Shown piece by piece: positions 4,393-59,776 of a stretch of DNA of 64,000 bases (position 1 is the stretch's first letter; every line of letters starts with the position of its first letter). Position numbers and translations under genes: made by a program. The DNA is from Thermoplasmatota archaeon (GTDB taxonomy: Archaea > Thermoplasmatota > Thermoplasmata > Halarchaeoplasmatales > Halarchaeoplasmataceae), in NCBI GenBank assembly GCA_018334755.1, contig JAGXLI010000001.1, positions 21,023 through 85,022 of the forward strand, written 5' to 3'. Under the pieces are notes generated by a model that was given only the letters and a program-made list of their open reading frames with translations, did no database searches and had not been told where the DNA came from.

Positions 4393-4642
4393 TACTGATC
4401 TATTCGTACGTGGTACTTAGAGCCGGTGAGCTTTATTGATCGACCGCTCTCTCACCGACCTACTTCACCTCTCTGAGTAGGATGTGTTTTGATCACACTA
4501 GCTGCTGACACTTCTATTTATCCTGATAGAATAGAGCAAAGTCACTTTAACCATACGATAATATTTAAGTAGAAAAAATCCGTCTCGACCGGTGGAGCGG
4601 ATAGATTTAGCTAGTCTCATGCTTCGAAGGGAAGTGAGATAT

Positions 4643-6364
4643 ATGAGATGCCAAAAGTTACTGACGATCGGCTTATCGATCTCTTTGTTACTCGGCGCAT
4701 TTATCACCTTAGCGGTCCCTGCAGACGGTTTGAACGGGAGCGCGGACCGATCGGAGCTGGAGGAACTAGGAGATACGGCCTGGCCGAGTTTTGGTAAAAA
4801 TGAAAAGAATACGGGTCTGAGTTCCTACGACACCTCTCAAGTGGACGGCGCGGTGAAGTGGGCTTCCGAAACTCGAGGGAAGATCAAAAGTTCACCCACA
4901 ATCGGCTCGGACGGGACGATCTACTTTGGCTCGAACGACGGTAGGTTGTACGCTCTGAGACCTGACGGTATACAGAAATGGAATTTTAGCACCTCGGGGA
5001 AAGTCCTCTCCTCCCCAGCTATCGGGGCGAACGGCAACATATATTTTGGTTCTGCAGATGAAAATTTTTACTCTCTCTCAACAGACGGTACCTTGAGATG
5101 GAAGTTCAATACCAGCGAGTACAGTGTTCTAGGAGGTATGATCGAATCTTCGCCCGTGATCGGACCGGACGGAACGATATATTTCGGATGCTGGAACGGC
5201 AGATTATATGCTCTTCACCAGAACGGCACAGCGAAGTGGAGCTTCGAGACTGGAGGGCCGATCAAGTCCCCTTCCCCGGCCGTAGGTTCCGACGGGACAA
5301 TTTATATCGGATCTCACTCCGGTAGCCTCTACGCCTTAAATCCCAACGGGACCAAAAAATGGAGCTACTCCGCAGGCGAGGCCTTCCATTCTACGCCGAC
5401 CATCGGTCCGGACGGGACCATCTACGTTGGGTCAGAAGATGACAATTTTTACGCTATAAACCCCGACGGGACCGAAAAATGGAACTATACCACGGGAGAT
5501 AACGTCCGAGCTTCGTCGGCTATAGGTCCTCAGGGTACGATCTATATAGGCTCTTTTGACTCGAAGATGTACGCATTCACCAAGTCTGGTTCTCTGAAGT
5601 GGTCCTTCGAATCCGACTATGCGATATACACCAATCCAGCCATAGGCAGTGAAGGTACCATCCACTTCGCTTCAGCGACGGGTACGATTTATTCGCTATA
5701 TCCGAACGGAACAGAGAAGTGGTCCACCCAGGCCCAGGATTCCATCGGCTCTTCACCCGCAATAGGTTCTAACAATAGGATCTATATCGGTTCGTCCGAC
5801 TCCAACCTGTATTCTATCGGCGCGGGTAAATCGGTCGAGAATCCTCCAGGTGAGCCTCAGAATCCTGAAGCCGAGGGAGGAAAAGGCTATGTCAAGGTAA
5901 CATGGGATCCCCCGGCCGATAAGGGCAGTTCTCTGATAGAGGAATACAGGATCTACAGAGGAGTGGATCAGACCCAGATAAGCCAATATGAAGTCGTAGA
6001 TGGATCGGAAGATTCCTTCAACGACACCGATGTAGAGGCCGGAACGACTTACTACTACAGAATCAGCGCTGTCAATGCCGCTGGCGAGGGTGAGTTGACT
6101 TCAACGGTCGAGGGAACGGTCTCCGACAGCGGTGGAGATAATAATGGTTCCTCTAATGATGACGATCCTGCCGATGAAGGATTCATATCATCCTACTGGT
6201 GGTTGATATTGCTTCTTATCATTTTGAGTGTGGTCATTATGACGATATTCCTGCTGCTTCATAAAAGAGAACCGCCGCAGAACTATCGGGACACTACTTA
6301 CGATGGACAACGATCAACTGGAGATCAGCCGCCGGAAACTACACAAAACAGGGATTCGGTTTGA
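4643..6364 (+). CDS. surface-anchored PQQ-like beta-propeller repeat protein with an FN3 domain, a C-terminal TM helix and a cytoplasmic tail
   Basis: Eight repeats of [ST]SP[AT]IG.DGTIY.GS.D..LYAL.P.G..KW, the PQQ/BamB-like blade motif. An FN3-like segment (VKVTWDPP...YYYRISAVNAAGEG) is followed by YWWLILLLIILSVVIMTIFLLL. The ORF track starts at 4592, but the signal-peptide-like start MRCQKLLTIGLSISLLLGAFITLAVPA at the in-frame ATG near 4643 is more likely. Confidence 0.7.
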   Translation: MRCQKLLTIGLSISLLLGAFITLAVPADGLNGSADRSELEELGDTAWPSFGKNEKNTGLSSYDTSQVDGAVKWASETRGKIKSSPTIGSDGTIYFGSNDGRLYALRPDGIQKWNFSTSGKVLSSPAIGANGNIYFGSADENFYSLSTDGTLRWKFNTSEYSVLGGMIESSPVIGPDGTIYFGCWNGRLYALHQNGTAKWSFETGGPIKSPSPAVGSDGTIYIGSHSGSLYALNPNGTKKWSYSAGEAFHSTPTIGPDGTIYVGSEDDNFYAINPDGTEKWNYTTGDNVRASSAIGPQGTIYIGSFDSKMYAFTKSGSLKWSFESDYAIYTNPAIGSEGTIHFASATGTIYSLYPNGTEKWSTQAQDSIGSSPAIGSNNRIYIGSSDSNLYSIGAGKSVENPPGEPQNPEAEGGKGYVKVTWDPPADKGSSLIEEYRIYRGVDQTQISQYEVVDGSEDSFNDTDVEAGTTYYYRISAVNAAGEGELTSTVEGTVSDSGGDNNGSSNDDDPADEGFISSYWWLILLLIILSVVIMTIFLLLHKREPPQNYRDTTYDGQRSTGDQPPETTQNRDSV

Positions 6365-6546
6365 GAAGTAAAGCCCCAGGCTTACCTCCCCCTCCCAAAA
6401 AGAGGTAATCCCGGGGTTCTTGATCTTGTCGTCTCATATCCTTATCCTTTACTCGTAATATATTAGGTGTACAACCATATATAATGGATTTCCGAATTGT
6501 TTGATAATTACTGCAAAGATTCGTCAAAGATGAGACACAATTCTCA

Positions 6547-6563
6547 CATAAATTATATTTAAA
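6547..6563 (+). promoter_or_regulatory. TATA-box-like element (ATAAATTATATTTAAAT) upstream of the HTH-PAS-GAF regulator gene
   Basis: AT-rich octamer about 30 bp upstream of ATG 6588, consistent with an archaeal BRE/TATA and a short leader. Confidence 0.35.
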
Positions 6564-6587
6564 TCCCTTCACTTTAGAAATGAGAAG

Positions 6588-10145: not shown

Positions 10146-13100
10146 CTAGTCTTCTTCACTAGGTTCTTCTTCGAAGGTAGATTCATCAGTAGACTCTTCT
10201 TCACCGAACAGGGCTTCTTCATTGGATCCCTCTTCCTCGAAGATTGGTTCGTCCTGGCTCTCTTCTTCACCGAACAGTTCTTCCTCAGTAGACTCTTCTT
10301 CTTCGAAGCTTGACTCGTCCCCGCTCTCTTCTTCACCGAACAGTTCTTCTTCAGTAGACTCTTCTTCTTCGAAGCTTGACTCGTCCCCGCTCTCTTCTTC
10401 ACCGAACAGTTCTTCTTCAGTAGACTCTTCTTCTTCGAAGCTTGACTCGTCCCTGCTCTCTTCTGGGGGTTCGGGCGGCCGTCTCGCTGTGTCTTTCTCT
10501 CTCGTATACAGAAGCCCGATGACGATCAGTAGCAGGATTATGATCGGGATGAGATATAGACTCAAACCGAACCCGTCCAGCATGCCTTCTTCACTCACCT
10601 GTGCTTCACTCACATCTACGCTTATAGTTTGAGTGTCTTCGTTGCCTGAACCGTCTCTGACCGTCAGCGTCACGATGTGCTCTCCGGACTCATCGAAGGT
10701 GTAAGGAATCTTCTTTCCAACATATTCCTCTCCGTCTATGGTCCAGACATATTCACTTATATTTCCAGTAGAGTTCCCGGCGTTGAGGATCTCTCTCTCG
10801 CCCTTATCAAGACTTCTGTTTCCGCCCGCCACGACTGCCGTTAATTCCTCTACGGTCTTTTCAGCTACATCTACAGTTATGGTATTAGAGCCGCTGTTCC
10901 CGGCAGCGTCTTTGACCATCAACGTGACATCGTACTCTCCGGATTCATGGAACGTGTAGTTGACCATCTTTCCTTCAAATTTATCTCCGTCTATAGTCCA
11001 GTTGTACTCGACTATCTCCACATTATCCGAAGAACCGCTGCCGTCGAAGGTGACCTCATCACCTTCCTCTACGTTTTTATCTTCACCGACATCGGCGACC
11101 GGGGCAGTTGCGTCTTTGACCGTGACGTTCAACGTATCGGTATCCGTGTTCCCGGCAGCGTCCCTGACCATCAACGTGACCTCGTACTCACCGGGATCAT
11201 CGAACGTGTAGTCGAACATCCTGACATCGAATTCTTCTCCTTCTATGTTCCAGATGTAATCGACTATCTCGACGTTATCCGAAGAGCCGGTGCCGTCGAA
11301 AGTGACATCGGTATCCTCGTCCACGTTTTTATCTTCACCCGCGTCGGCGACTGGATCGGTGATATCCTTGACCGTGACTATTACAGTGTCTGTGTCAGTG
11401 TTACCTTCAGCGTCTCTAACGGTCAGCGTGACCTCATACTCACCGGGATCATCGAACGTGTAGTTGATCCTTTCGCCTCCGAACTCTTCTCCGGTTATAT
11501 TCCAAGTATACTCGACTATCTCCACATTATCCGAGGAAGCGTTGCCATCGAAAATGACTTCGGTATCTTCCTCTACGTTTTTATCTTCTCCAGCGTCGGC
11601 GACCGGATCGGTCGCATCTTTGACCGTTATCATTACAGCATCGGAGTCCGTATTATCTTCGCCGTCCTTTACGGTCAGCGTCACTTCGTACTCTCCCGGT
11701 TCGTCGAACGTGTACGGGATCAATTCTCCTCTATATTCTTCTCCGTCTATAGTCCAGATGTACTCGGCTATATCTCCGGAGGATCCTCCGGCGTCTAGGA
11801 CCACTCTAGTGTCTTCATCCACGCTTCTATCTTCGCCTGCATCCGCTATCACTTCTTCCACGACAGTCATATGCCGGCTCTCAGATCCAAGGATTACTTC
11901 ATAATCTCCAGGTTCTTGGAGCGTGATGTTCTCGGTTATGTCTATGACTTCATCTACCACGACAGTATAAGTCCAGGACTCGACGACGATTCCAGTTTCG
12001 TTTTCAACCACTAGATCGATCTGTCCTTCGGCGGTCCCTACGTTTTCGACCGTTCCGTTGATCGTCACCTGCTCGCCTTCGACGATCTCAGAGGGATCTA
12101 CACTCAGATCGGCAATATCAAATTCCGGTACGGCCTCTTCCACGGTCACGGTCTCGCTTTTATCTCCTATTGTGACCGTATAAACCCCTGGCTCCTGGAG
12201 CGTGACGTTCTCGCTTATATGCGTGGTATTACCGGCCCCTACAGTATAATTCCATGACTCGACGACGATTCCAGTTTCGTTTTCAACCACCAGTTGGATC
12301 TGTCCTTCGGCGGTCCCTGTATTCTCAACCGTTCCGTTGATCGTCACCTGCTCGCCTTCGACGATCTCGGTCGGATCTACACTCATATTGCTGACATCAA
12401 ATTCCGGTACGGCCTCTTCTACGGTCACGGTCTCGCTTCTATCTCCTAGAGTGACCGTATAATCCCCAGGTTTCTCGAGTGTGACGTTCTCGGTTATATT
12501 CAAGGTCTTCCCGGCGCCTACAGTATAAGTCCAGGATTGGACGACACCGCCGGTTTCGTTTTCAACCACCAAATCTATCTGTCCTTCGGCGGTCCCTGTA
12601 TTCTCCACGGTACCGTTTATCATTATCTTGTCGCCTTCGACCACTCGATTTGGAGCGGTGAGGTTCAGAACGTTCAGGTCCGATGCTCTTTTTTCTACGA
12701 ATATACCGACCTGAGCGGTATCGGAGTTATTTTCTGCATCCGTAACTATCAACGTTGCGTCATAGGAACCCGAATATGGGAGTGAATGGGATATTACATC
12801 TCCTTGGAGTGTCACGGAATAGTTCTGGTTTGCGGCATCTCCGCTGATGCCTTCGACTACCCATTGGTAATCAACGATACCTATATTGTCGATAGATGCC
12901 GAACCGTTCAAGGTGAAGGTTTCGTTTGTTTTTACCAATTTGTGGCTTCCCCCTTGAGCGACCGGACTTTCAGTATCTATCGAATAAACGTTTATGGTAT
13001 CGGTATCGTGATTACCGTGGAAGTCCGTGACATTCAAGCTCACGGTATAATTCAGAGCGTAATCGAGGGTATGGTGGGTCGTTTCATGATATAGGGTGAT

Positions 13101-16100
13101 CGAAGATCCAGTCGGATCTTCTATATTCCAGGTATAGTTTGCTATGCCTACATTATCGTGGGAATTTGACGCGTCTAAAGTGATTTCGTCGCCCTGGTAA
13201 GCGGTGAAGTTCCCTCCGGCGTCAGCGACCGGCAGCGCCGTATCGTTCAGATAGAATTCCCAACTATTTCCGTAGGGTTCGACGTTTCTAATTTTATAGT
13301 CCTGGTACTCCGCGACCACGTACCAAGAGTGATTGGTAGCCATCGCTTCTTCTGATAGGTTCCAAGACACGGAAGCAGTTCCGTTCATCACACCACTGTC
13401 GTAACCTATCAGCTTGTCTGTCTGGTTCTGGTAGAAACTCACGTTCACCGGCTGTCCGATGGGTGTAGTTATGTCTACCGATAAAGTCTGGTTGGCCCCG
13501 TCCACTTGGGCTTCATCGGCTGGAACAGGATTAACGGCATCTGGCATCGGGGGTTCCTCTTTAGAATTTTCGTTCATATCCATATTGTCCACTCTATCGA
13601 CGGCTCTCACCACATAGTGCCACTGTATCCCGTCGTCACCTCTGTTTGGATCCTGGTACATGTAACTTGCTGAGTCGTCGGCCTTGACCGTGTCTATAAT
13701 TGTACTTTGATCCCAAGGTCCGGTAGAATAGTTAGATCTATAGATCACGTAATGATCCACGTCATCGGCTCCTGCACCGTCGTCGGCCGAGGCGTTCCAG
13801 GTGATCTCGTTACCCTTAACAGGGTCTAGATAAAGATCGTGTATCGATTTTAAACGTATATCGTCGACGCGCCAGCCGGCTCCATAGGCCCCGTCAAAGG
13901 CTTCTACTCCCGCGGTCCAATTGAGGTGAACGGTTTGTCCCTGATAAGCCGTCAGGTCGAAAGTGACGGTCTCCCAGCCGACTGCGCCGCCCCAGCCGGA
14001 TTCTCCTCCGAGTGGGTTACCATAACTGTCACTTATCGTACCGTCGTAACCGCTTTCAGGTTCGATGAGCTGGTAATTGCCATTAGCCCCAGTAGTAGAT
14101 ATCTTGAGATTACCACCGTCGTAGAGAGATGAATCCCCGAAGTCCCTCCAGTGTTGGAAGGTCAGTTTTACGTTATCGCCATCTTCAGGTATCGCCATTT
14201 GAGGTGTGATCAGTGAACTCATCATACCGTGAGAACTGTTCTTGTTGAACTGACCGTCGCCCCAGTCCCAGGAATTGTTCCCACTGACGGAACCGTGCTG
14301 CCGGATACCCCAGTCGCTGGCTTCTGCGTGGCTTTCTTCCGTTAAATATCCAAGATCGCCGCCTTCTACGTCATCGTACCATACAGTTTCCTCCCTGACC
14401 TTGGTATCGCCGTACCAATCCACGGTGAGATTATCCACCTGCTGGGGAGGCTTCGCATTTATCACGGCAGAGGCCGTCTTCCAAGTGGAGTAAGGAAGAT
14501 AAGTCTCGAAAGTGAAGGTAGCCGAGGTATTGGTCTTGTACCCGTCAGAGACCTCTGCATACCAATGGAAAGTACTGTTGGAACCTATGTACTCGAAGGT
14601 AACTCCGGCCCTCGTTCCGGATTCAACAGCCGTTACTGTTTTATTCCTGATCTCGCTGCCCGTTTCATTCAGTAGATGGAAGGTGACGTCAAGATCATCT
14701 CCATTGGGATCGGAGACGTTCACGCTGAGATCCGGTGAATGGGTCACATTCGTTTCGCCGTCGGTCGGGATCGGGTCCGTTGGTTTGTTCGGTGGATAGT
14801 TATGATCCACGGAGATCCTTCTAGTGGTGATATTGTCCTCTATGTTGTCGTCTTTCGGATGCATTGTTTTCAACTTGAGGACGTAGTCGCTCGGGACGAC
14901 GGCCGGTGTCCAATTAGCGAACTGAAGCTGTGTATTTTGAGTTATATTCAACGAATCTATGATCGCCTGGGAGTCGTATTCAGGGGTGGTATATTCATTC
15001 GTGACGGTCACGTTGTCGATCGTCCAGAACTCGTCCTGTTCGACTTCCATCGAGTAGAACTGCCATCCGACCATGATGTTGTCTTCACCGGAGGCCCACT
15101 GAGAAAGATCGTATGAGATATTGCCTTCCCCTACACTGCTTCCGATCCGCTGATAAGTGGTACCGTTGTCCGTTGATATCAACATGTCCCTGTCGTTGGT
15201 TCCGTTGTATCTGGATTCGAACTCCAGCAGGACACGGTGTGTCCCCACGGTACAATTTATCGGACCGGTCCATAAGACGTCATCCTCGTAGGCATCCGCC
15301 GGTGCGATCTGCATGAAGTCTCCATTTGTATCAGTCCACGTGTTATTGTTTCCGTTCCTGTCCTCCGTGGTCCAGTTGGCCGGCATACCCGCGGAGAAGT
15401 TCTCATCTACCTCCGTGACTTCAGTGATCGGTTCGATCGTCATGTTAACCGGCGTGTCCGTGATGTTCTGATTTCCCACGTTGGATACGGTTCCAGAGAC
15501 TTCCTGCTGATATTGGTAGACGGGTTCGACCGGAGTATCTATGGAAGTAGCTTCTAAATCATAAATCACGGGTCTGACCTTAACCGTCCTTCGTACCGAA
15601 TCGTTAGATTGATTCGAATCGTTTGATAATCTCGTGGTGCTGTTGATGATGTACATCCCGTCAGAGGAGGGAGTCCAGTTAGCGAATGTTGCCGTCGTGT
15701 TTTCCCCTGTATTCACATCGACCGTGACTTCGTCCGTATATTCCTGGGTCGTGTAATAAACTTCGACGTTGTCGATAGACCAGTCGTCGTATGACGAGGT
15801 CCCGTTGGTACTGTTGAATCTAAAGCCGATCTTCAGGTCCGAACTGCCGTCAGCATACGTAGAGATATCGAAATCGTACTTTCCATCCTCATCTCCAAAT
15901 CTAACGATCCTGTTCCAGGTGGCTCCACCATCGTTGCTTACAAGCACATCGCCGTAGGAATCTCCAGAGATACTGCTGTTATAGAAATCACTATCGAACT
16001 TTAACCGGGTGTTCGTGGCGTTCGTAGCATTGATCTTTGGAGTGATCAGATACTCGTCCTGCCACACGTCAGAGGAAGCTTCTTCGACAAAAGCATAAGG

Positions 16101-19100
16101 AGTATCAAAATTATATCCGTCATCCCATTTCCAGGTCTCTGAAGATTCATTGTCTATAGTCCATTCGGAAGGTATTTCGTCGTTGAAGTCCTCTTTTAGT
16201 AATCCAACTTTTTTGCCTATCGTGGTGTTGACCGGAACGTCGGTTTCGTCGACAGTCCCGTAGTTACCGACATCGGCTGTCACGTTCTGGGTGCGGTTGA
16301 AGACGACATTCGAGGGTGATATGATCTCTTCGACCCCGGTATCACTTATATTATAGGCGTCAAATTCTTCTACAGAATAATTATTGGTATCGTCCATATC
16401 AGATGACAATTCCGTCGTAACGTTAATCAAGTAGCCTCCGGGAGAAGGAGGGGTGAAATCTGCAAATGTGACATTTTTGTCCTGCCCAGCATCGATAGGT
16501 TCGTTGATCTCATCGGTATAGACTGGACTCGTTGTGTAGCCAGTTATATTGACGTTATCTACCCGCCACCATTCTGGTTCTGAATGATAGCTGTTATAGA
16601 ATCTAAACCTTACTTTTACGTTATTTTTACCCGCTGCCCACTGGGTCAGATCCATCGTTTCCGTTCCGCTGCCGGCAGTATCTACGAGATCCCAGGTACT
16701 ACCTCCATCGTTGGAGATGTATACTTCCCTAGTGTTATAACCCTCATAATCCGAGTCGAAAGTGAGTTCGACCTTGTAATCGGAGCTTGAAAGGTCGTAT
16801 GAAGCGGTGGTCATATTGTCTTCTTCATCGTCTTCAGTACTGTCGACCTGCATGTAGTCTCCGTACGTCTCGTTCCAAGTATTATTGTTACCATCTACGC
16901 TCGTAACATTCCAATCCGTAGGTAATCCAGAGGTGAAGTTTTCATCAACGGCGTAGTTATTCGCCGATATCTTCTTTATCGTTGCGTTCACAGGCACGTT
17001 TTCGTCGAAAGTCCCTAGATTACTAACATTAGCTTCGACGGCCTGTGTGACAACTCCAACGGTGCCGGTCGGTGAGATTATATGGTCCGTAGCTGCATCG
17101 TGATCGTCTATGACCTCTATCTCTTTTATCGTATGATCGTTAGATTGATCAGTATCTCCTGATAATAATGTCGTAGAGTTCATCTCGTATATGGCCTCTT
17201 CACTCGGTGTCCAGCTTGCGAAATCTGCGGTCGTGTTTGCTCCCGCGTTCACGTCTACTGTAACTTCGTCCATATATTCTGTCGACACAGAATTAAACTG
17301 TACGTCGTCCATATACCAATCCCAGAGGCCATAACTATCCCCGTCAAATTCAAACCTTACCTGGGTGCCGGTCCCTATATAACTCGATATATCCTTATCA
17401 TAAGAACTTGGACCTACATCTCCAGATATCGGGTTCGACCATGGGGTGATATCCGACCAACTGTCACTCGAATTTTGTCTAATAGAAACGTTACAATTAT
17501 ATCCGCCGCTATAATCATATATATATGAGTTGAAGTTGAGCGACAGGCTCGAGGAGCTCGTCGTGTCGATCGCCGGTGTCTGGAGATATGAATAGTCATC
17601 CGTGATGTCAGAATAGTCTAGATCCGCTTCTGGAGATGTTCCACCTGCTTCGCTACTGTCGGACTGCGACCAATCGCCGGATTCTGTAGTCCAACCTGTC
17701 GGTGGGACGCCGCCGGAGAAATCTTCGGATAACAAACTAGACATTTTCTTTATCGTCGTGTTCACAGGGACACCTGTCAGGTTATTGTCCCCGTAGTTAT
17801 GTACCACGCTTTTAACGGGATGAGTACTCGTATTCACTCTCTCTTCTGGAGAAGTGATCTCGGTAACCCCCACGTCATCGGTCGCCGCAGGTTCAGTACT
17901 CATCAGATCGTTTTCGCTTCCCGTCGTGTTATAGCCGGATCCTTCGTAACCCGGATCCTCGTCTAGGTACCATGCGGTTATGTTACCGTCATGTTCTACA
18001 TACAGCCCTTGTTCACTCGCATTCGTGGTAGTGCTGACGTTGCCCTTGAACAATCCGTCTATTTCCGGGCTTTCCGTCAATGTCACCATCACGCTGTCGA
18101 TCTCCGTCCCGGCAGCATCCTCGCTGGTTATGTTAACATCATAGGTGCCTTCGCCTGCAAGATCGATATCTCCCAGAGTGATGTTTACCGTGTCGTTCCC
18201 GGAATATTCGTTTCTATCTAAGGTAAACGTCGCATTTTTTATCATATCCTCCTGCGTATTGTATGCTGTCAGAGCGTAGTCCTGGTTGGGGGTACTGTCG
18301 TTGTTGGCATCGGCCGGGATATCGTGCCCTATAACCTTCACGGTATAGGTCCCGCTCTCTAGATCGTCCGGATGGACATACACGTTCTCCACGTTGTTCA
18401 CGTCGTCCCATCCGTCGCTGTTATTGTCGAATTCTCCCATCGCGTCAGTATTTGGATAAGAGAAACCGGTGTCGCTGACGGTTCCTCCGGTTTCATTGAA
18501 AGCGTTACCACGATAGACATCGCCGCCGGGCGAGATCACTTTTAGGTTGAGATCGTTCTTGAGTACTGGTGTTCCTCCGGAGCTGTCTCCTGACTGAGCG
18601 TTCTTATCCGTCCAGGCAAGGGTTATATTCAAAGGTTTGTCAGGGTCGTCGACCGTGAGCTGGTATTCGTCCTGTTCACCGGTCGTCAGTAGATTCGGCT
18701 GATCCTCCATCGTGAGACCCACTGGATCTGATTTAGGATATTCCAGTCTAGATAGGTCCACTATACCCCACCCTTCGTCTCGATTCGGGATATGGCCTCT
18801 TGAATTCCCAACATCAGGATCTAGATCTCTAGCCGAATTTATCAATATAGATTTGACCATCGCCGGGCTCGGAGTTTCTCCCTCGTTTGCTTCATACCAT
18901 TCGACGACGCTTGCAGCTGCGCCCGCCACAGCAGGATTGGACATCGACGTTCCCGACATCTCAGTGTAGCCTCCATCAGGCGTTAGTGAGTAGATGCCCT
19001 CGCCGGGAGCCGTGACGTCGGGTTTGATCCTATTGTCTTCCGTCCACCCTCTAGAACTGAAGTCCGCGACCGTCTCCGCATTTTCGAAGCCGTCATCAGG

Positions 19101-23620: not shown

Positions 23621-23623
23621 CTC

Positions 23624-24238: not shown

Positions 24239-26461
24239 ATGGCCAGAAGACGTTTGGATATGATGAGTAGGATATTTACACTCATGGTCATCTCCTTTTT
24301 AGCTTTGGGCGTGGTCTCAACATCACAGGCCTCTCTCTCCACTCCAGAACAGGCTACTGTTATCTCCCCACGGAGTACTGAGGAAGTAGAAAGTGACTAC
24401 CAATCTCACGGGTCGATAAGGATAGATTCTAACGAGGACTTCGCAGCCCAGGCTGAACAAGAAAACTGGCCCGGGAACGGAACCGCGGAAGATCCTTACA
24501 TGATAGAGGGATACGAGATAGACAGTAAGGGCTCTGGTTACTGCATCTATATTGGGAATACCACCGTAAACTTTGAGATCAAGGACAATTACCTCCATGG
24601 GGCGAGCGGGAATGATGGGAGATTCTTTAGAAACTCCGGGGTGTATCTACGCAACGTAAAGAACGGTCTTGTTACCAATAACACGGCGGTGAATAACGAG
24701 TACTATGGTATCTACCTCTTAGGGTCTCAAAATATCGCCGTTATCAACAATACTGCGAGGAAGAACGATATGGGGGTCGCCCTCGAGGAGTACAGCAAGG
24801 AAAACACGGTGGCAGACAACACAGCCTCGGAAAACGGGTATCACGGGATACTTCTGATGGGATCTAGCGATAATAATGTTATCAAAAACAACATCGTCTC
24901 GAACAATACCAGAGCCGGGGTTCGGATCGAAGGGTCTAACGATAATTTAATCTATCACAACCGATTACTTGAAAACGGCAATCAGGCCTATGATGACGGA
25001 AATAACAGTTGGGACGATGGAGACCCTGCGGAAGGCGGTGGCGGTGGAAATTACTGGTCGGATTACAAGGGAAATAACAGAGGAGACGGTATAGGCGATG
25101 ACCCTTACCGCGTGGAGGGAGATGGTAATCAAGACGATTATCCGTGGGTAAATATTCGGATGATCCATCCAGCGGGTAGTTTCAATATCTCTGTAAAGGA
25201 TATTCCCGTCGGAGAGTCTCCAATTATAGAGATATCCGACGGGTACGATGTGCACGACAACCTCCTGAACGGTGATTACAGCGTAGAAGTCGTGGTAAAC
25301 AACAGGACGGAGAGGAAGGAACTGACATTTTCTCAAGGCGATTCAAAATATGTTGGAAAAGAAATGAATGAGACCGGCGAATATACCGCCAAAGTTACTA
25401 TAGATGGCGTCACTGGATATGATACCTTTTCCGTGGGGGTCGAAACCCAGGGAAGGATCGAGATCGAGCCGGAGGGAAAAACCGTCCATGCAGGCCAGAA
25501 GGTCTCTTACACGGCAACGGAGTATGACGAGAACGGCTCTGAGGTAGGGAACGTGACCGAAGAAACGGAGTGGTCGATAGAGGATGGAGCGGGTGGCAGC
25601 TGGGATCAGTCCCGGGGGTTCTATACTTCGGAGAACGTCGGCGAATGGAAAGTTACAGGCACCTACGAGGAACTGACCGATAATGAAACTCTAACAGTCG
25701 TTCCGTCGGATTATAATCTCACGATATCTATCCAGGGGGAAGGGAGTACGGATCCATCCGAGGGTATACACGCCTACGAAGACGGTACCGAGGTCGATGT
25801 AACGGCCATACCGGACGAGGGCTGGTATTTTGCCGGGTGGACTGGAAACATTACCAGTGGTGAGGGGGAGATCACGGTGAAGATGGACAGCCATAAGAAC
25901 TTAACCGCCAACTTTCAAAAGGAAGGAGTCGAATACTTCGATGTGAAGATCATCTCATGGGATGAAGAAGCGGGGAAAGAAGATAAGCTGACGGTAACCT
26001 ACAGAGTTAAAAACATGGGTAAAGAGAAGGGCACACAGGATATAGCCTTTTATGTAGATGGCAAGAAAATCGATAGGAGGAAGGACGTCGCCATCCCGGC
26101 CGGAGAAAATCGTACCGATCATTTCACCTGGGAATTTGAAGAGGGAAGGGAATACGAAATCGAAGTTGCCAGCAATGATACGACCGATTCAGAGATGGTG
26201 ACAGTAGATGGTACTTCCTCCCTTGATGAAGAGAGTCCAATATTGGGGATATTGAGCCACTACTGGTGGTTGGTACTTCTTGTGGTGATAGTAGCCCTCG
26301 CCGGTATGGTTTTCGTTATTACCCGAGGTAAAGGAGACTCGGAGGGAAAAAAACCGGAGCAGCCCCCTGCTCAGAAAAAACAGTATCAAGATTTCCCTAC
26401 AAGCGAATCGTTTGAAGAGGAGAAAGGAGAGCGCTCCGACTCCTCTAAGTATGACTTCTAG
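24239..26461 (+). CDS. surface protein with a right-handed parallel beta-helix (NosD/PbH1-like) region, Ig-like domains, a C-terminal TM anchor and a charged tail
   Basis: Signal peptide. PbH1 repeats (NNTAVNNEYYGIYLLGSQNIAVINNTARKNDMGVAL...NNIVSNNTRAGVRIEGSNDNLIYHN). The C-terminus is HYWWLVLLVVIVALAGMVFVI followed by a K/E-rich tail. Confidence 0.7.
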   Translation: MARRRLDMMSRIFTLMVISFLALGVVSTSQASLSTPEQATVISPRSTEEVESDYQSHGSIRIDSNEDFAAQAEQENWPGNGTAEDPYMIEGYEIDSKGSGYCIYIGNTTVNFEIKDNYLHGASGNDGRFFRNSGVYLRNVKNGLVTNNTAVNNEYYGIYLLGSQNIAVINNTARKNDMGVALEEYSKENTVADNTASENGYHGILLMGSSDNNVIKNNIVSNNTRAGVRIEGSNDNLIYHNRLLENGNQAYDDGNNSWDDGDPAEGGGGGNYWSDYKGNNRGDGIGDDPYRVEGDGNQDDYPWVNIRMIHPAGSFNISVKDIPVGESPIIEISDGYDVHDNLLNGDYSVEVVVNNRTERKELTFSQGDSKYVGKEMNETGEYTAKVTIDGVTGYDTFSVGVETQGRIEIEPEGKTVHAGQKVSYTATEYDENGSEVGNVTEETEWSIEDGAGGSWDQSRGFYTSENVGEWKVTGTYEELTDNETLTVVPSDYNLTISIQGEGSTDPSEGIHAYEDGTEVDVTAIPDEGWYFAGWTGNITSGEGEITVKMDSHKNLTANFQKEGVEYFDVKIISWDEEAGKEDKLTVTYRVKNMGKEKGTQDIAFYVDGKKIDRRKDVAIPAGENRTDHFTWEFEEGREYEIEVASNDTTDSEMVTVDGTSSLDEESPILGILSHYWWLVLLVVIVALAGMVFVITRGKGDSEGKKPEQPPAQKKQYQDFPTSESFEEEKGERSDSSKYDF

Positions 26462-36792: not shown

Positions 36793-37455
36793 TCAGTCCT
36801 TTTTACCTAGTAATTTCCTGCTTTTCTTCTCCCGTGGAGAGTCCCGATCCGTCATCCTGTCGAAGAACGCTGGAGATATCACTGCACAAAAGATGACTAC
36901 AGAGATCAAGAGCAGGATCGCCGTGGGGTAATACAAATTTCCGATAGATTCCGGGGTAACGTCGATCACCGCCGTTTTCCTGTCCATCGGCAGACCCATG
37001 TTCAACAGCTTTATGTTGAAGGTCATCACCGCGGTAAAGGTATGTATCCCGCTTTCAGCTTTCCAAAAAAAATCGAAGGTCTCACTGCTGTTGCTTTTTA
37101 GACTAAAATTCGTCCAAGAGATCAATATATCTTCAAAATGCATCAGCGTGACGTTAACGCTCTCAACGATCGTAAGATTGCTCAGATCTATCGTTTCGTT
37201 GTTAGTTATAGTCAAAGAGATCGTTATGTTGTCTCCTTCTCTCGGATTGTCTTTTGAGAAAGTTATGTTGGAGATGGTGATATTGAAGCTTTCCTGGCCC
37301 GGCTGATCTTGGGCTGGTTCTATCTGATCTATCTTTTGTCCAGCATCTCCGAGAGCGGGTGTCGATACGGGGATTAAAAGCATCACCGCGATCATCAGTG
37401 CCAATATAACAGGACCGCGGAGACCGACTTTTGCATCTCTCGATATCTTCATCAT
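36793..37455 (-). CDS. membrane-anchored CARDB/Ig-like domain protein, probably an accessory subunit of the downstream ABC-2 transporter
   Basis: N-terminal TM/signal sequence, an NxT-rich beta-sandwich (NITISNITFSKDNPREGDNITISLTITNNET) and a C-terminal TM helix. It abuts the permease gene. Confidence 0.5.
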   Translation of the reverse strand: MMKISRDAKVGLRGPVILALMIAVMLLIPVSTPALGDAGQKIDQIEPAQDQPGQESFNITISNITFSKDNPREGDNITISLTITNNETIDLSNLTIVESVNVTLMHFEDILISWTNFSLKSNSSETFDFFWKAESGIHTFTAVMTFNIKLLNMGLPMDRKTAVIDVTPESIGNLYYPTAILLLISVVIFCAVISPAFFDRMTDRDSPREKKSRKLLGKKD

Positions 37456-46638: not shown

Positions 46639-46914
46639 ATTATAGTTTATATGGTTCTGATTATTTACGTGTTATGGTGGGAAAGTATTGCCTTTTTCGA
46701 ACTTGCTCTTGTCGAGAGTTGAGTGCGTTTCCTCACTAAAGAGACGGGGTCTACATATCCTTATCCTCGTCACCACTCTAGAGGACAGGATTAAAAGATA
46801 GGGGAAGCAAATTCGGTTACGTTTAAAATCAAAAGTGCGAAATATATGGGAAGAAAAAACTTTTATTATACTAAAAGATTGCCAATATCGAGCAAGAAGT
46901 GGATAGGAGATAAA

Positions 46915-55372: not shown

Positions 55373-58300
55373 TCATCTATCTCTTGACCCTTCTCCTGGG
55401 TTCTCTTCATGATCGGAAGTTTCTTTCTCTTCTCCACTTCCATAAAAGAATGGAGGTACTTCTTCTACAGATTGGCCAGAGTTCTCTTCGAGATCCTCAT
55501 CCAAGTCCTCTTCCACGTCATCCTCTAGGCTTTTACTCTCCTCGTCTTCAAAGTAAGAAGTTTCATCATCAGGTCGATCCTCATCGTTCTCTTCAAAACC
55601 GATATCCTCGGACTCTTCTTCTCTTTCCTTTCTTCTCATAGCCAGCATCGCTATCAAAATTATAAGCAGGATAACTATCAGGGGGATAAACCACCAGTAA
55701 TCTGAGAGCGTCCTGTCCTCGTCCGATCGACTCTCTGAATCTTCTCCATTACCATCATCTTCGGCACTTTCGATCTTGAAGTCGATCCTTTCCGTTCCAC
55801 TATTCCCGACCTCGTCTACGGCTTTTACCCTGACAGTGTGGTTACCTTCCGAAAGATTTGTGAAGTCATGTCGGGTAGCTGTTCCAGTATCTATCCATCC
55901 TTCTCCATCTATACAGACTTCGTATCTCTCTATACCGCTCCCGGGATCTTCGCCCTCCCAATCTACCGAAACGGACTCATTCGAGAGTAGTGATCCTTTG
56001 ACCGGTTTTATGACTTCGATGGAAGGGGCCGAAGTGTCTACGTAAACACTTGTGGAATTATCGACAATGATCTCTTCCAGATTACCCGAGCTGTCTTCAG
56101 CGGCGGTGCAGAACTCATAGAGTCCGTCTTTTTCAGATGCCGTAAAGTTGAATATACCTTCGGTTCCAGCACCGGAGATATTTAAACTCTCAAAGTCTTT
56201 CCACTCCCTTCCATCAACTCTGTAGTGGAGCGTTACCTTGGATAGCTCCCTGTTATCGTCCGCGGTGAAATCTACCATGAAGTTGGTCGAGTTGGTGTAT
56301 TCACCCAAACCTTTTTCAAGACTGGCCGAACTTGAGGGAGCTATAACGTCGATAACATCCGTATTTTTTACTTTAGTCTCTTTCCAATTTTGGTTCTCAT
56401 CTACGGCGGAAAAGTGATACTTCAAGGAAGAGGCATCTTCTGGCACTTCTTCGATCGATTGATAGGTGTGAAGTCCAATCTTTTCTAGTGTGATATTATT
56501 TATCGACTCGTTATCGAACCCGTAATTCAGGAAAACATCGTCTATCTCATCTTCATCGTCAACCACGGCCTCGAACGTGAAGTCCATCCCGGTTTTTGCC
56601 TCGGAGGAAGACCTATCGAATATCCGAGGTGAGGTGAAATCTGTGGTCATCACTTCTGTCCTGTTCCAGTTCTGTGAACTATCCACCACGTTGGCGTAGT
56701 AGCTCAATTTGTTAGCATCGTCCGGTATTTCAAGTACGGTCCCATAGATATCGCTGCCAGTCTTTTCTACGCTTATATTTTTGTACTCGCGGTCATCGAA
56801 CCAATAATTCAGGTATACATCGGAGACTTCTATATTGTCCTTGGCATCGATCTTCACCACGTACTCGTTCTCCCCACCGCCTTCCATCCCAGGGCTCTTA
56901 TCTTCAATGAAGGGCTTGTCATCATCTATCACCTCTCTACGGTACATTTCGGTGGAATTCCAATTCCCGGAAAGATCTTTTGCCCTTATGGTGTAATTCA
57001 ATTCCGTGGCGGAAGACGGTACCGAGATCTCCTTGGAATATCTTCCCGGTCCCGTTCTATTCATAGTTAAATTCTTTTCATCGGTCACGTCGGTCTCGTA
57101 GTTGAGTAAAACTTCGCTGACCTCGATATTATCAGAGGCCGAGGCTTCGAATACATGATCATCGCCTGTAGTCATATCGGTCGAACTCTTATCGAAGATC
57201 TTCGGAGCCTCTATATCATCTACTGGGACCTCGACTTCCTCGGTCCTGTTCATATTACTAGATTCGTCCTCGGTTACGATCCTGTAGGTCAGCTTTTCAG
57301 CATCGGATGGTATTTCTATCTTTTTTCTAAATGTGACTTCTCCCAGCCTGTCCGAGCTCTGAATGTCCATCGGGATGTTCTTAGTAGTTATTCCCCCATC
57401 TTCCTTATGTACAGAATAATTGACATGGGTGTGATCGATCTTCATCTCATCTTTCACCGTAGCGTTAAAAGTGTAATTCATCCCGGTTTCAGCGCTTTTT
57501 TGGCTGTTATCCGTTATTTTCGGCTTTAGGTAGTAATCCAATATGGCCTGTACGAAGGTCGCATGGGTCCATGTCAATGGATTGGCGGTACTCCCTCCTC
57601 GATAGGCCTGCCCCAGTCTTCCGTCACCGTAATCTTTTGTGGTCTCGGGCAGATAGTTCAATGGAGACCTGGCCTGCATCGCGCGCCACATGTATCTGTC
57701 ACTTACGTTCCTCCTGCCGGCTCTGGTGCAATAAAAGGAAAGGTACAGATATCGGTTGGTCCAGTCATGGGTGAAGTTCCATCCCGGACCGGGACTTGGA
57801 TCATGGGCCGTCGAATATTCAAAGGTATCTTTTATCCGCGGATCGTCAGGTGAATGCACGTCCAGCCACCACATGGAAGGTACCCAGTCTAGACCCCCGT
57901 TGGGATACGTATAATAATGCTCGTCGTCCGGGCTGCTCGGCGGATCGGGCATGGGATCGATATCATTATCTGTCTGGTTGTAAACGATCCTCTGGAGATA
58001 TACGCTTTCGTTCTCGTCCCAGAGGTGTTCCTCTATCCCCTGGTAGACTCTAGAAGAGGCGTTCATCAGTTCATCTCTGAATTGCTCGTCTTTGCCCAGT
58101 ATAGAAGCTATCTCTCTCGTCCGGTTCCAGGCCGCCACGGCTAGCGTGTTTGACCAGAAACTCTGGCTCCACTCGAATGGACGTTCATTATAATCGCAGT
58201 GCGGTACCAAAAGGTCGTTATCCCATATCCTTTCGGTCAGATAAGAAGCTGCGGGTTTGATCGTCTCATTATAGTAATTTTTCAACCAAGTTTTGTTTTC

Positions 58301-59776
58301 AGTATGCAGGTAATGATACCAGGCGCCCATCACGACCAGTGAGGGTTGGTCCAGTTCTGGCCCGGCCTGCTGATCGGGGAGATAATCTACTGCGCCGACA
58401 GCCTTTCCATCTGGGTTATAAGATTGGAGCCATCCCCCGTCGTCCTCTTGTACCGAAGCCATGAACTCGTAAAATTTACGTGCTTCTTCATGATAGCCCG
58501 CGGAGTCATAGGTCCAGGCGATATACGTCCCGTCACGGGGCCAGCTCTGTTTATATTCCGGTTGGATCAAAGGAGAGGCGGGGATGTGTCCGAGCTTTTC
58601 ATTGAAATTACCCCGCATGGTGATGAGTGCTCGTCGATAAACTCTTTCGGTAGTTTCATTGAGACCCGATGGGATCTTCGCCTTAGATATCCAATCCTTC
58701 CACCAATCCGTGGTCTCGGTCCTGAGCGAGTCCCAACCTTTCTCTCTTGCCATAGACAAACGCTCTAAAGATTCGGTCTTGTTTTTACCCATGGAGAAGA
58801 AAAGGGTCACCTCTTCGTTTTCCTCTGGGGCCAGTTCTCCCAGATCGAATTCCATATAATCGTTTCCTTTTCCAGTGGTCAAGTTCTCGTTGTCTTGTAG
58901 ACCCTCTTGGACGGCATCGTAGGCGCTGTCCCCGCCCCAGTCCCCTAAAAAGAGTTTGCTTATGTTCCTGTCCGAACCGATGGACAATGTGAAGGGATCA
59001 TCACCGTTCGGACCGGTATAAGTTATCGCGTCTTTAGATCCATTGTAGGTGATATCGTTCTGCCATCGGGGGTCGATGATCCCCTGTTTGGGCCAGTGAA
59101 AATTGGTTTCCTGGCTGTATATATCGAATGTGAAGTAATGGCCGTCCTGCTCCGGAGCATTTCCCTGTTTAGCTCTGTTCAGGTTGAACTGTGAATAATA
59201 TGTGAGGTTGAAAAGCGCTTCTATATCCCGCTCGTTGGTGAGATCGAAATGCTGGACCAGGACCGGTTCGTGTTTATAGGCGAAGGCAGTATTTTTTAAA
59301 GTATAGTTAGATGTTTCATGCTTCATATCTACGATCATAGAGTCCTCCCTGAAGGACATCTCGTGATCGGAGGCGTTACTCACCCATCTATAATCATCGT
59401 TCATCCTGACGCCGGGCCTTCCTCCCATCCATTCTTTGTGGGATGAGATCCTGGGCGGTTCTCCATACTTGTTCTCGTAACCGGCGTGACTAGAGTTGTA
59501 TTCCATGTGAGCGTAATAGCCGACCCATGGGTACATGAAATTCTGCATAGTTCCTTGGGCGTCGAAAGAGGCACTGAGAGAACGGGAATTGCTGACCACT
59601 GCGTAACTGTCGCAGGCGCCGAAGGCAGAGGCGGTATAGTCCTTGTCCTGAAGCTCGTTTTCCTTTTCAGGATCGTTCTCCGATTCTCCCTCGACGTTGA
59701 TACCTGGTAAAAGCAGAGATGTCAATATAACTGCTGTCACTACACAGATCTTGACATTCTTTTTCATCGTGCTCAA
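55373..59776 (-). CDS. large (1467 aa) membrane-anchored surface protein with an N-terminal GH15 (glucoamylase-like, alpha/alpha6 barrel) domain, Ig/FN3-like repeats, a C-terminal TM helix and a long acidic tail
   Basis: Signal peptide. KQSWPRDGTYIAWTYDSAGYHEEARKFYEFMASVQEDDGGWLQSYNPDGKAVG fits the GH15 WxRD plus G.W.Q.Y..DG region. Then come at least 5 beta-sandwich repeats (..NYS..VTFRKKIEIPSDA..L.Y). The C-terminus is DYWWFIPLIVILLIILIAMLAM followed by a roughly 100-aa D/E-rich tail. Confidence 0.7.
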   Translation of the reverse strand: MSTMKKNVKICVVTAVILTSLLLPGINVEGESENDPEKENELQDKDYTASAFGACDSYAVVSNSRSLSASFDAQGTMQNFMYPWVGYYAHMEYNSSHAGYENKYGEPPRISSHKEWMGGRPGVRMNDDYRWVSNASDHEMSFREDSMIVDMKHETSNYTLKNTAFAYKHEPVLVQHFDLTNERDIEALFNLTYYSQFNLNRAKQGNAPEQDGHYFTFDIYSQETNFHWPKQGIIDPRWQNDITYNGSKDAITYTGPNGDDPFTLSIGSDRNISKLFLGDWGGDSAYDAVQEGLQDNENLTTGKGNDYMEFDLGELAPEENEEVTLFFSMGKNKTESLERLSMAREKGWDSLRTETTDWWKDWISKAKIPSGLNETTERVYRRALITMRGNFNEKLGHIPASPLIQPEYKQSWPRDGTYIAWTYDSAGYHEEARKFYEFMASVQEDDGGWLQSYNPDGKAVGAVDYLPDQQAGPELDQPSLVVMGAWYHYLHTENKTWLKNYYNETIKPAASYLTERIWDNDLLVPHCDYNERPFEWSQSFWSNTLAVAAWNRTREIASILGKDEQFRDELMNASSRVYQGIEEHLWDENESVYLQRIVYNQTDNDIDPMPDPPSSPDDEHYYTYPNGGLDWVPSMWWLDVHSPDDPRIKDTFEYSTAHDPSPGPGWNFTHDWTNRYLYLSFYCTRAGRRNVSDRYMWRAMQARSPLNYLPETTKDYGDGRLGQAYRGGSTANPLTWTHATFVQAILDYYLKPKITDNSQKSAETGMNYTFNATVKDEMKIDHTHVNYSVHKEDGGITTKNIPMDIQSSDRLGEVTFRKKIEIPSDAEKLTYRIVTEDESSNMNRTEEVEVPVDDIEAPKIFDKSSTDMTTGDDHVFEASASDNIEVSEVLLNYETDVTDEKNLTMNRTGPGRYSKEISVPSSATELNYTIRAKDLSGNWNSTEMYRREVIDDDKPFIEDKSPGMEGGGENEYVVKIDAKDNIEVSDVYLNYWFDDREYKNISVEKTGSDIYGTVLEIPDDANKLSYYANVVDSSQNWNRTEVMTTDFTSPRIFDRSSSEAKTGMDFTFEAVVDDEDEIDDVFLNYGFDNESINNITLEKIGLHTYQSIEEVPEDASSLKYHFSAVDENQNWKETKVKNTDVIDVIAPSSSASLEKGLGEYTNSTNFMVDFTADDNRELSKVTLHYRVDGREWKDFESLNISGAGTEGIFNFTASEKDGLYEFCTAAEDSSGNLEEIIVDNSTSVYVDTSAPSIEVIKPVKGSLLSNESVSVDWEGEDPGSGIERYEVCIDGEGWIDTGTATRHDFTNLSEGNHTVRVKAVDEVGNSGTERIDFKIESAEDDGNGEDSESRSDEDRTLSDYWWFIPLIVILLIILIAMLAMRRKEREEESEDIGFEENDEDRPDDETSYFEDEESKSLEDDVEEDLDEDLEENSGQSVEEVPPFFYGSGEEKETSDHEENPGEGSRDR

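Follow-up and report, generated by a model that had tools for sequence, protein, structure and literature searches.

A conserved S-x-Y-W-W-[LF] edge on the C-terminal membrane helices of unrelated secreted proteins in a Thermoplasmatota archaeon, most likely part of a lineage-typical anchor

Three secreted proteins encoded in a 64-kb stretch of Thermoplasmatota DNA (the window, meaning the whole stretch analysed) end in a membrane helix that opens with the same aromatic sequence, YWW[LF]. This raises the question of whether the sequence is a sorting or processing signal, or the edge of an anchor that stays in the membrane.

The YWW motif and its carriers in the window

The three proteins, their anchor cores (from the motif pattern and ORF reading) and their tails are the following:

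4592..6364, plus strand: secreted PQQ/beta-propeller and fn3 protein with YWW anchor (Pfam Beta-prop_ACSF4, PQQ_2, fn3)
6188..6259, plus strand: anchor core of the PQQ protein, SSYWWLILLLIILSVVIMTIFLLL
6260..6361, plus strand: its cytoplasmic tail, 34 residues starting HKRE, net charge -1, not acidic
24239..26461, plus strand: secreted NosD/right-handed beta-helix, InlB-B-repeat and CARDB protein with YWW anchor (Pfam)
26255..26323, plus strand: anchor core of the beta-helix protein, SHYWWLVLLVVIVALAGMVFVIT
26324..26458, plus strand: its tail, 45 residues of mixed charge (RGKGDSEGKK...SFEEEK...), net charge -2
55373..59776, minus strand: 1467-aa secreted giant with a weakly GH15-like N-terminal part, Ig-like repeats and YWW anchor (Pfam)
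55637..55705, minus strand: anchor core of the GH15-like giant, SDYWWFIPLIVILLIILIAMLAM
55376..55636, minus strand: its tail, 87 residues, strongly acidic, net charge -30, predicted to be unstructured (AlphaFold2)

The ATG at 4643 is the likely start of the PQQ protein. The beta-helix protein is identical to the NCBI entry 'right-handed parallel beta-helix repeat-containing protein [Candidatus Thermoplasmatota archaeon]' (P0004), and the GH15-like giant corresponds to KGY76_00270. The giant matched Pfam Big_7 above the cut-off and Glyco_hydro_15 below it (19.5 bits against a cut-off of 22), and gave no sequence match in PDB. According to a hydropathy scan and their N-termini, all three proteins have an N-terminal signal peptide and a single C-terminal hydrophobic segment. 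Their C-termini read ...GFISSYWWLILLLIILSVVIMTIFLLL-HKR (nt 6188-6259) in the PQQ protein, ...GILSHYWWLVLLVVIVALAGMVFVIT-RGK (nt 26255-26323) in the beta-helix protein and ...RTLSDYWWFIPLIVILLIILIAMLAM-RRK (nt 55637-55705, minus strand) in the GH15-like giant. These readings confirm the sequences given in the initial annotation, and its claim that YWW[LF] plus a transmembrane helix is common to unrelated ectodomains (PQQ propeller, NosD beta-helix and GH15-like) stands.

The variants in the window read S-[SHD]-Y-W-W-[LF]. The anchors as a whole follow the consensus Φ-Φ-S-x-Y-W-W-[LF]-Φ-[LP]-L; a K/R cluster comes 20-22 residues past the Tyr, and several members show a Pro three or four residues past WW, within the helix. 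Across all six frames the window contains only three YWW tripeptides, each at the start of the C-terminal membrane helix of one of these signal-peptide proteins. The amino-acid composition predicts 0.17 YWW in 18,869 residues (P about 7e-4), and the chance that three of the five C-terminal anchors of the window would carry YWW at the helix edge is about 1e-12. At the DNA level, TAYTGGTGG was found three times against 0.52 expected, a count of at least three being reached in none of 100 shuffles, and a 36-nt degenerate pattern of the motif was found three times against 0.00 expected. The YWW motif is real and far beyond chance.

Single-sequence AlphaFold2 models of two anchors show one confident helix spanning the motif and the transmembrane segment, with linker and tail unstructured. 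In the last 110 residues of the beta-helix protein this helix covers positions 37-67 (pLDDT 88-95), and in the GH15-like giant it starts at the D of S-D-Y and is 25 residues long.

Anchors without WW and the cytoplasmic tails

WW is absent from the other two C-terminally anchored proteins of the window:

10146..20627, minus strand: 3493-aa secreted S8 peptidase with PKD repeats and an anchor lacking WW (profile and hydropathy)
10506-10565, minus strand: anchor of the S8 giant, LSLYLIPIIILLLIVIGLLY, which has LS-x-Y...IP in common with the GH15-type anchor
10149-10505, minus strand: its acidic tail, 119 residues built of a 66-bp tandem repeat, net charge -54
36793..37455, minus strand: 220-aa CARDB-like secreted protein with a C-terminal transmembrane helix starting NLYYPTAILLL (hydropathy, Pfam)

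The C-terminal helix of the S8 giant reads GLSLYLIPIIILLL. Helix and tail agree with the earlier description of this protein as a transmembrane segment plus acidic tail without YWW, and the shared residues suggest that its anchor may be related, in degenerate form, to the GH15-type one. The CARDB-like protein has a Tyr-Tyr cap and a basic tail.

A long acidic tail had been included in the signature. This holds for the GH15-like giant, but the tails of the PQQ protein, rich in T, Q and P, and of the beta-helix protein are near neutral. Across all members, the tails have between 8 and about 170 residues, and some are near-neutral while others are very acidic, which does not bear out an association of acidic tail and motif; the acidic tail is separate from the signature and not part of it.

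Conservation in the orthologue and in other assemblies

An orthologue of the PQQ protein, 75% identical, was found in locus L043 of a sister genome. Identity between the two is 81% in the folded domains and 93% in the motif, compared with 44% in the linker, 33% in the second half of the transmembrane segment and 35% in the tail. In this alignment the motif is selectively conserved relative to its neighbours. Apart from forced codons, the DNA flanking the three window motifs is unrelated, which excludes recent gene conversion between the anchors, and the protein flanks are unrelated too.

The analysis covered 64 kb of this genome and a number of small loci. Five more archaeal assemblies have this anchor on different ectodomains, which brings the assemblies with the motif to six. 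The motif is not confined to three paralog-derived tails, since it is conserved in the orthologue and recurs on proteins elsewhere. Six examples that came up without use of the YWW pattern (the three window proteins, the second protein of locus L054, P0018/P0274 and P0021), and that represent at least five ectodomain architectures, keep the exact Y-W-W with Ser two residues before Tyr. In eight anchors, the distance from Tyr to the first K/R is 20-22 residues, and the basic cluster after the helix reads HKR, RGK, RRK, KRK, RKR, KRR or KKRR. The layout of signal peptide, single C-terminal transmembrane helix and basic cluster (type I) was present in all cases examined. L054 encodes two adjacent YWW proteins whose tails, at most about 170 residues long, both end in the zinc ribbon IECPVCGREVxPDAEKCWACGE, which matches Pfam DUF7575/Zn_ribbon_3 just under the cut-off. 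The shortest tail among YWW members has 8 residues (P0018/P0274), and relatives with SSY[FL]WL have 4-6.

These data bear on whether the similarity is simply inherited, by recent duplication or shuffling of one anchor module, or due to chance, in either case without selective meaning. The beta-helix members (window, L009 and P0021) plausibly received the anchor along with the ectodomain, and the GH15-like giant and the two L054 proteins all have Ig-like domains ahead of it. However, the unrelated DNA and protein flanks and the motif-only conservation in the orthologue largely refute a recent module or chance, chance being excluded, and the motif occurs in six assemblies. We regard this explanation as very improbable.

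Close homologues are less strict, and drift to YFW, YLW, YEW and FWW. Among beta-helix homologues the helix caps are SSYFWL, SSYLWL, SNYEWL, NFWWL, PWW and DILW. Trp stands at the boundary in 17 of 33 anchors that are not of the PGF/PEF type, against 27% expected (P = 0.002). More distant beta-helix homologues of other archaea show PGF/PEF-CTERM at the same position, with true PGF ends only in P0009, P0014, P0060 and P0075.

Search for sorting signals and processing enzymes

The C-termini do not match PGF-CTERM, PEF-CTERM or PIP-CTERM, in agreement with the initial annotation: Pro-Gly-Phe is not found at the helix edge, no CTERM sorting family was detected in an NCBIfam scan of four C-termini (E<=10), and a Pfam scan of C-termini (E<=10) gave nothing above the cut-off. 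The Gly-Gly signature of GlyGly-CTERM, typical of rhombosortase substrates, is absent from the motif proteins. Pfam and NCBIfam scans also agree with the earlier observation that no archaeosortase or rhomboid-like gene is visible in the 64-kb window, where no CPBP-type protease was detected either. A single polytopic protein of the window (8847-9944) was left unassigned, and it contains neither Cys nor any rhomboid or CPBP motif. The very short basic tail of known sortase-type signals was rejected as a description of these proteins, whose tails count 34, 45 and 87 residues in the three window proteins and up to about 170 in L054, P0018/P0274 being the only short one.

The motif could still be an undescribed C-terminal sorting signal of halophilic Thermoplasmatota, and possibly of some DPANN, that replaces the PGF/PEF-CTERM archaeosortase system of related archaea; it would be read by an envelope-assembly system, or by a membrane enzyme (archaeosortase-like, rhomboid-like or other) that cleaves, lipid-anchors or sheds the ectodomain. 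As in PGF-CTERM, PEF-CTERM and PEP-CTERM proteins, the helix has a brief signature at its outer end and a basic cluster after it, and one genome uses this arrangement on many secreted proteins that are unrelated to each other. The motif is exact on non-homologous proteins in several assemblies, it lies where homologues elsewhere have PGF/PEF-CTERM, and about 100 kb of sequence from this lineage showed no PGF-CTERM protein. Furthermore, the Pro past WW might break the helix, the tail is short in some members, and a Trp-capped beta-helix homologue in L086 has a rhomboid gene about 0.5 kb away. Nevertheless, these anchors differ from PGF/PEF-CTERM in having neither P-G-F nor P-E-F, no match to a CTERM model, no archaeosortase or other candidate enzyme in the window, and tails that, instead of a few basic residues, can be long and end in a zinc ribbon, which cleavage would waste. 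No gene consistently adjoining motif proteins was found across the compared loci, and the closest homologues have degenerate motifs. Taken together, a processing signal of this kind seems distinctly unlikely.

A probable retained anchor with an aromatic interfacial collar

Sequence comparison also revealed the motif outside archaea. Bacterial GspF/PilC (T2SSF), DUF805 and SPFH proteins have a transmembrane start [SAG]-(x)-Y-W-W-[LF]-[IV]-L-[LF], with K/R about 20 residues on, although in internal or N-terminal helices of unrelated membrane proteins that are not homologous to the archaeal ones. The DUF805 motif comes after an R-R cluster and so probably faces the cytoplasm. The bacterial proteins are polytopic and not processed, and this recurrence, together with the drift in homologues, points to membrane-interface physics more than to the recognition by a processing enzyme that had been proposed. 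YWW takes 7th place among the 8000 tripeptides when these are scored on the Wimley-White interfacial scale.

Rather than a new sorting signal that is cleaved, the signature is most likely an anchor typical of the lineage. More precisely, it is probably the outer end of a type I (N-out, C-in) stop-transfer anchor that stays in the membrane and is capped by an extreme aromatic collar at the interface. The anchors show one C-terminal helix, a positive-inside cluster and W/Y at the outer boundary, as in aromatic-belt type I anchors, which likewise have a signal peptide, a C-terminal helix of about 21 residues, an acidic outside and K/R inside. The preference of W/Y for the interface is strongest in helices that only anchor, with enrichment of negative residues outside (PMC5525207). 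The tails look retained because the two L054 tails end in a folded zinc ribbon, and long tails oppose the cleaved sortase-type pattern, in which tails are short. In addition, the gradual drift of homologue caps makes the motif a continuum and not an all-or-none recognition site. We infer that the anchor is probably not cleaved, and that the motif would act by interfacial partitioning and not through an enzyme.

According to this proposal, a salt-adapted group of Thermoplasmatota would place the anchor on many large secreted enzymes and adhesin-like proteins. These would be exported through Sec by means of their N-terminal signal peptide until the C-terminal helix halts translocation, and the K/R cluster 20-22 residues after Tyr would fix the cytoplasmic end. 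Under a strongly acidic extracellular linker, the S-x-Y-W-W-[LF] collar would lock the start of the helix into the lipid-water interface, and the cytoplasmic tail, variable, mostly disordered and acidic where long, would stay on. The proteome is acidic overall.

In contrast to ordinary aromatic-belt anchors, the cap is unusually strong here and keeps its sequence (S-x-Y-W-W-[LF]-Φ-[LP]-L) across non-homologous proteins and genomes. A lineage-specific constraint beyond interface physics alone is indicated by the sequences, because a generic belt would tolerate more variation than the exact S-x-Y-W-W seen. Such a constraint might reflect a specific interaction surface, used for lateral helix-helix association in an envelope lattice or for binding a lineage-specific (glyco)lipid head group. 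The conservation that exceeds a generic belt includes the Ser two residues before Tyr and Φ-[LP]-L, and in the window it is the largest surface proteins that bear the motif. A canonical S-layer is missing from many Thermoplasmata, which depend on glycoproteins anchored in the membrane, and this also speaks for the explanation. However, two of the five C-terminal anchors of the window have no WW, homologues drift, and the motif recurs in unrelated bacterial helices, so we consider an interaction surface unlikely.

Biological meaning

If the motif is an anchor only, it would be a sequence marker for the membrane-tethered exo-enzymes of an uncultured salt-adapted Thermoplasmatota group, among them S8 peptidases, beta-helix and propeller proteins and a glycosidase-like giant, and would show how a cell whose surface proteome is very acidic may tether huge ectodomains to its membrane. 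That GspF/PilC and DUF805 helices open with YWW as well suggests a generally optimal way for a helix to end at the membrane interface. Were the motif a processed signal after all, it would represent a new archaeal sorting system whose substrates could be listed straight from sequence.

Shared C-terminal signature of three secreted proteins

The three C-termini that the initial annotation had described as sharing a YWW anchor match that account in sequence, and the aligned signature, Φ-Φ-S-x-Y-W-W-[LF]-[IVL]-[LP]-L, exceeds the one first given in length, with the first K/R located 20-22 residues past its Tyr. The six reading frames of the window contain three YWW tripeptides and no others. Each opens a single C-terminal hydrophobic segment, and all three proteins show an N-terminal signal peptide. 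Analysis with Pfam agreed that the ectodomains are unrelated, since they have three different domain architectures. The S8 giant, which Pfam identified as an S8 peptidase with PKD repeats, has, as described, a C-terminal helix lacking WW and an acidic tail.

Secreted proteins with a C-terminal helix
4592-6364 (+): PQQ protein; PQQ/beta-propeller and fn3
10146-20627 (-): S8 giant, 3493 aa; S8 peptidase and PKD repeats, no YWW
24239-26461 (+): beta-helix protein; NosD beta-helix, InlB-B-repeat and CARDB
55373-59776 (-): GH15-like giant; weakly GH15-like domain and Ig-like repeats

The Glyco_hydro_15 match of the last protein is under Pfam's cut-off, a sequence match in PDB was absent, and the search with its full length retrieved the protein itself and two irrelevant matches. 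The other two C-terminal anchors of the window are capped by Tyr only (LSLYLIP and NLYYPTA).

Observed and expected occurrence of the motif in the window
TAYTGGTGG, both strands: observed 3, expected 0.52, 0 of 100 shuffles reaching 3
36-nt degenerate motif pattern: observed 3, expected 0.00
YWW by amino-acid composition, 18,869 residues: observed 3, expected 0.17, P about 7e-4
YWW at the helix edge in 3 of 5 C-terminal anchors: P about 1e-12

A copied module or recent gene conversion was ruled out by DNA alignment of the three regions, which are unrelated except where Y-W-W-[LF] dictates the codons; the protein flanks of the three motifs fail to align as well. Pure inheritance or chance, as the origin of the similarity, is essentially excluded.

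Conservation and occurrence in other archaea

The window has a G+C content of 42-52% and encodes moderately acidic proteins (D+E 17.0%, K+R 9.3%). Two of the encoded proteins have identical NCBI entries, which derive from a MAG labelled 'Candidatus Thermoplasmatota archaeon' (locus tag KGY76_), and a search for sequence extending the window yielded only short Logan contigs of SRR14023937. The closest genome found is that of an 'uncultured Thermoplasmata archaeon', isolate ERP127260_co1_119 (GCA_964462425.1); its contig shares synteny with the window's left end. One homologue of the beta-helix protein is labelled 'Candidatus Saliniplasma', which is placed in the order 'Ca. Halarchaeoplasmatales', halophilic and probably salt-in (PMC11332174).

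The PQQ orthologue in the sister genome (locus L043) shows 75% overall identity, unevenly distributed along the protein.

Identity between the PQQ protein and its sister-genome orthologue, by region
Folded domains: 81%
Acidic linker: 44%
GF[IM]SSYWWLILLLII: 93%
Helix, second half: 33%
Tail: 35%

By these regional identities, it is the motif together with the initial helical turns that is under selection; the tail is not.

The motif could have been confined to three paralog-derived tails, a case raised by the initial annotation; instead, it recurs on other ectodomains in other assemblies. Scanning of a species-representative genome collection with a degenerate DNA pattern gave at least 60 stretches, mostly from DUF805 and GspF proteins, and for this reason no taxonomic distribution can be read from the list. 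Four archaeal matches were among those listed, and three of the four anchor giant secreted proteins at the C-terminus. Furthermore, two entries among the 120 homologues of the beta-helix protein have exact YWW anchors.

YWW-anchored proteins outside the window
Beta-helix protein, >1640 residues, another Thermoplasmata MAG: LSEYWWLILLFMII, EAPTEEE-repeat tail
PQQ orthologue, sister genome (L043): genome-scan match
S8 peptidase, 1674 aa, MAG labelled Aenigmatarchaeota (locus L054): TSSYWWLIPLLVV
Second Ig-domain protein, adjoining the S8 peptidase in L054: ISGYWWLLPLILI
Beta-helix homologue P0021, GCA_003552585.1: ILSDYWWLLIALII, acidic tail of 57 residues
Beta-helix homologue P0018/P0274, GCA_905333415.1 and sister genome GCA_964462425.1: GSGYWWLILILIG, tail of 8 residues

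The total is nine YWW-anchored proteins, which come from six assemblies and represent at least five ectodomain architectures. Six were found without a YWW-based search and the rest were ascertained by the motif itself. No further YWW anchors were present in the flanks of six beta-helix homologues (loci L085-L087 and L091-L093). A profile of the motif alone, run on a 5.8-billion-protein collection, produced 281 candidates that shared words with it, but no match at E<=10, because a 50-column transmembrane motif is too short at such a database size. Among the top 150 matches of the PQQ protein in 1.84 billion representatives, C-terminal helices occur in 18, all of them without YWW; these matches are mostly bacterial multi-propeller giants and serve as a negative control, uninformative on lineage.

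Drift of the motif and its use in unrelated membrane proteins

In the beta-helix homologues nearest to the window protein (41-44% identity), the anchors read SSYFWLFLFF, SSYLWLILLF, SNFLILALFF and SNYEWLILLS, followed by tails of 4-38 residues, and helix starts in other homologues are NFWW, PWW, DILW or DYIW. When PGF/PEF-like ends are set aside, 33 homologue anchors are left; Trp lies in the boundary window of 17 of them, where 27% would be expected (P = 0.002). Eight homologues carry PGF-/PEF-CTERM-like ends in the same architectural position as the YWW anchor. This series of endings suggests that the motif forms a continuum and is not a strict recognition site.

A non-membrane domain, 'GxGYWV...W.V.W', closes 34 of the 120 beta-helix homologues. 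An 863-aa secreted protein of the window (50655-53246, -), which has no C-terminal transmembrane segment, closes in the same way, with 'GRGYWVYN...VDWTISY'. This ending probably represents a separate, uncharacterised domain for C-terminal attachment, used in place of the membrane anchor.

A metagenome scan with the anchor alignment produced 160 pattern matches reduced to 22 loci, 12 of which were examined ORF by ORF. None of the 22 contained an archaeal C-terminal anchor; they encode helices of GspF/PilC or, as in SPFH/Band_7 proteins, anchors near the N-terminus. In the metagenome and genome scans together, the helix start [SAG]-(x)-Y-W-W-[LF]-[IV]-L-[LF] was found in several bacterial families (Pfam T2SSF, DUF805 and Band_7). 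It opens the second transmembrane helix of GspF/PilC platform proteins and helix 1 of DUF805 proteins (RRSEYWWFVLF), and in SPFH and some other proteins it belongs to the N-terminal anchor. From this recurrence, YWW plus a hydrophobic run is a transmembrane-helix start that has been used repeatedly and convergently. By the Wimley-White interfacial scale, YWW comes seventh among the 8000 tripeptides. The interfacial preference of Trp and Tyr and the negative-outside enrichment are reported to be strongest in helices that only anchor (PMC5525207).

Cytoplasmic tails

The tails had been described as 35-100 residues long and acidic. They comprise 34, 45 and 87 residues, roughly in that range; the acidity holds for the GH15-like giant (net charge -30) and not for the PQQ (-1) and beta-helix (-2) proteins. 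The tail of the S8 giant has a net charge of -54 and is encoded by a 66-bp tandem repeat (10194-10464, 4.1 copies, 92% matches; repeats ESSFEEEESTEEELFGEEESGD). The beta-helix and GH15-like tails have one or two similar elements each, of the form S/x-F-E-E-E. S-F-E-E-E, found in three tails, was set aside as evidence for a common acidic-aromatic motif because a single tandem repeat, itself in acidic surroundings, accounts for nine of its 11 tail copies.

The two YWW proteins of L054 have tails of about 170 residues each, rich in acidic residues and Lys, and both close with the same zinc ribbon, IECPVCGREVxPDAEKCWACGE (Pfam DUF7575/Zn_ribbon_3, just under cut-off). They are encoded at L054:2054-7078 (-) and by an adjoining partial ORF on the minus strand at the locus edge. 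A cytoplasmic zinc-ribbon module joined to a surface enzyme is an unusual arrangement.

Search for a processing enzyme

S-x-Y-W-W is exact across unrelated proteins of these genomes, beyond the needs of a generic belt, and two readings are therefore kept alongside that of an anchor. A specific lipid- or partner-binding role seems unlikely to us, and a genuine signal for sorting or processing somewhat less likely still. NCBIfam and Pfam scans of the C-termini matched no curated sorting domain, in agreement with the mismatch to known signals reported initially. Likewise, no archaeosortase or rhomboid was found among the polytopic proteins of the window with Pfam and NCBIfam; those assigned to a family are an ABC-2 permease, UbiA, TIGR00341, MFS, MscS and MatE. 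Three membrane proteins have no family assignment:

8847-9944 (-): 365-aa protein with about nine transmembrane segments, between the PQQ and S8-giant genes, no Pfam/NCBIfam family
44829-45917: putative second ABC-transporter permease, NCBIfam match far under cut-off
54864-55367: small membrane protein, beside the GH15-like gene

The first lacks Cys and is therefore not an archaeosortase-type enzyme, and no rhomboid or CPBP motifs were seen in it. In the sister-genome locus L043 its orthologue likewise adjoins the PQQ gene, which is ordinary synteny of close relatives. Across the loci compared, no gene consistently adjoins the YWW-anchored genes. In the related locus L086 (9410-13019), rhomboid and M50 site-2-protease genes lie downstream, within 0.5-3 kb, of a Trp-capped beta-helix homologue with the anchor start GGSDILWIVLIII; this proximity, a single case, may be coincidence.

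Other genes of the window

6588-8156 (+): regulator with PAS and GAF domains (Pfam)
33306-34295 (-) and 34487-35494 (-): regulators, near-duplicates in tandem
23487-24038 (+): S/P-rich ORF, 183 aa
36793-39228 (-): small secreted protein, CARDB-like, its C-terminal anchor capped by Tyr-Tyr, directly downstream of ABC-2 permease and ABC ATPase genes
46846-47730 (+): 294-aa protein, clear small-GTPase domain of the Ras/Roc type (Pfam Ras E=1e-30), acidic C-terminal extension

The three regulators are paralogous and share a near-identical ArsR-type HTH N-terminus, LSYL.LGQ.GGENR.KI.E.L.ER.YN.NQ. The S/P-rich ORF is probably not a gene; gene calls on an identical Logan contig put DUF302 and OsmC at this position, on the other strand. 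The CARDB-like protein, the permease and the ATPase apparently form one operon. An Arf/Ras/Roc gene similar to that of the GTPase is found in L086.

Structure and interpretation of the anchor

AlphaFold2 models built from single sequences, for the C-terminal 150 residues of the GH15-like giant and the C-terminal 110 of the beta-helix protein, predicted one confident helix comprising the motif and the transmembrane segment (pLDDT 84-95), with linker and tail unstructured in both. The predicted helix begins directly after the Ser in the GH15-like model and eight residues earlier in the beta-helix model, and because of this disagreement Ser is at most a possible helix N-cap.

With 64 kb of the source genome and small related loci as the evidence base, the best-supported reading, which we consider probable, is that the signature is part of a retained type I stop-transfer anchor. 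The components of such a protein would be its signal peptide, huge acidic ectodomain, acidic linker and aromatic collar, together with a ~21-residue helix and a positive-inside cluster. The cytoplasmic tail would be variable, mostly disordered and acidic if long, with a zinc ribbon in one lineage. No description of the motif was found in the libraries or papers searched, and it is a new, lineage-typical form of the C-terminal membrane anchor, which is itself well known.
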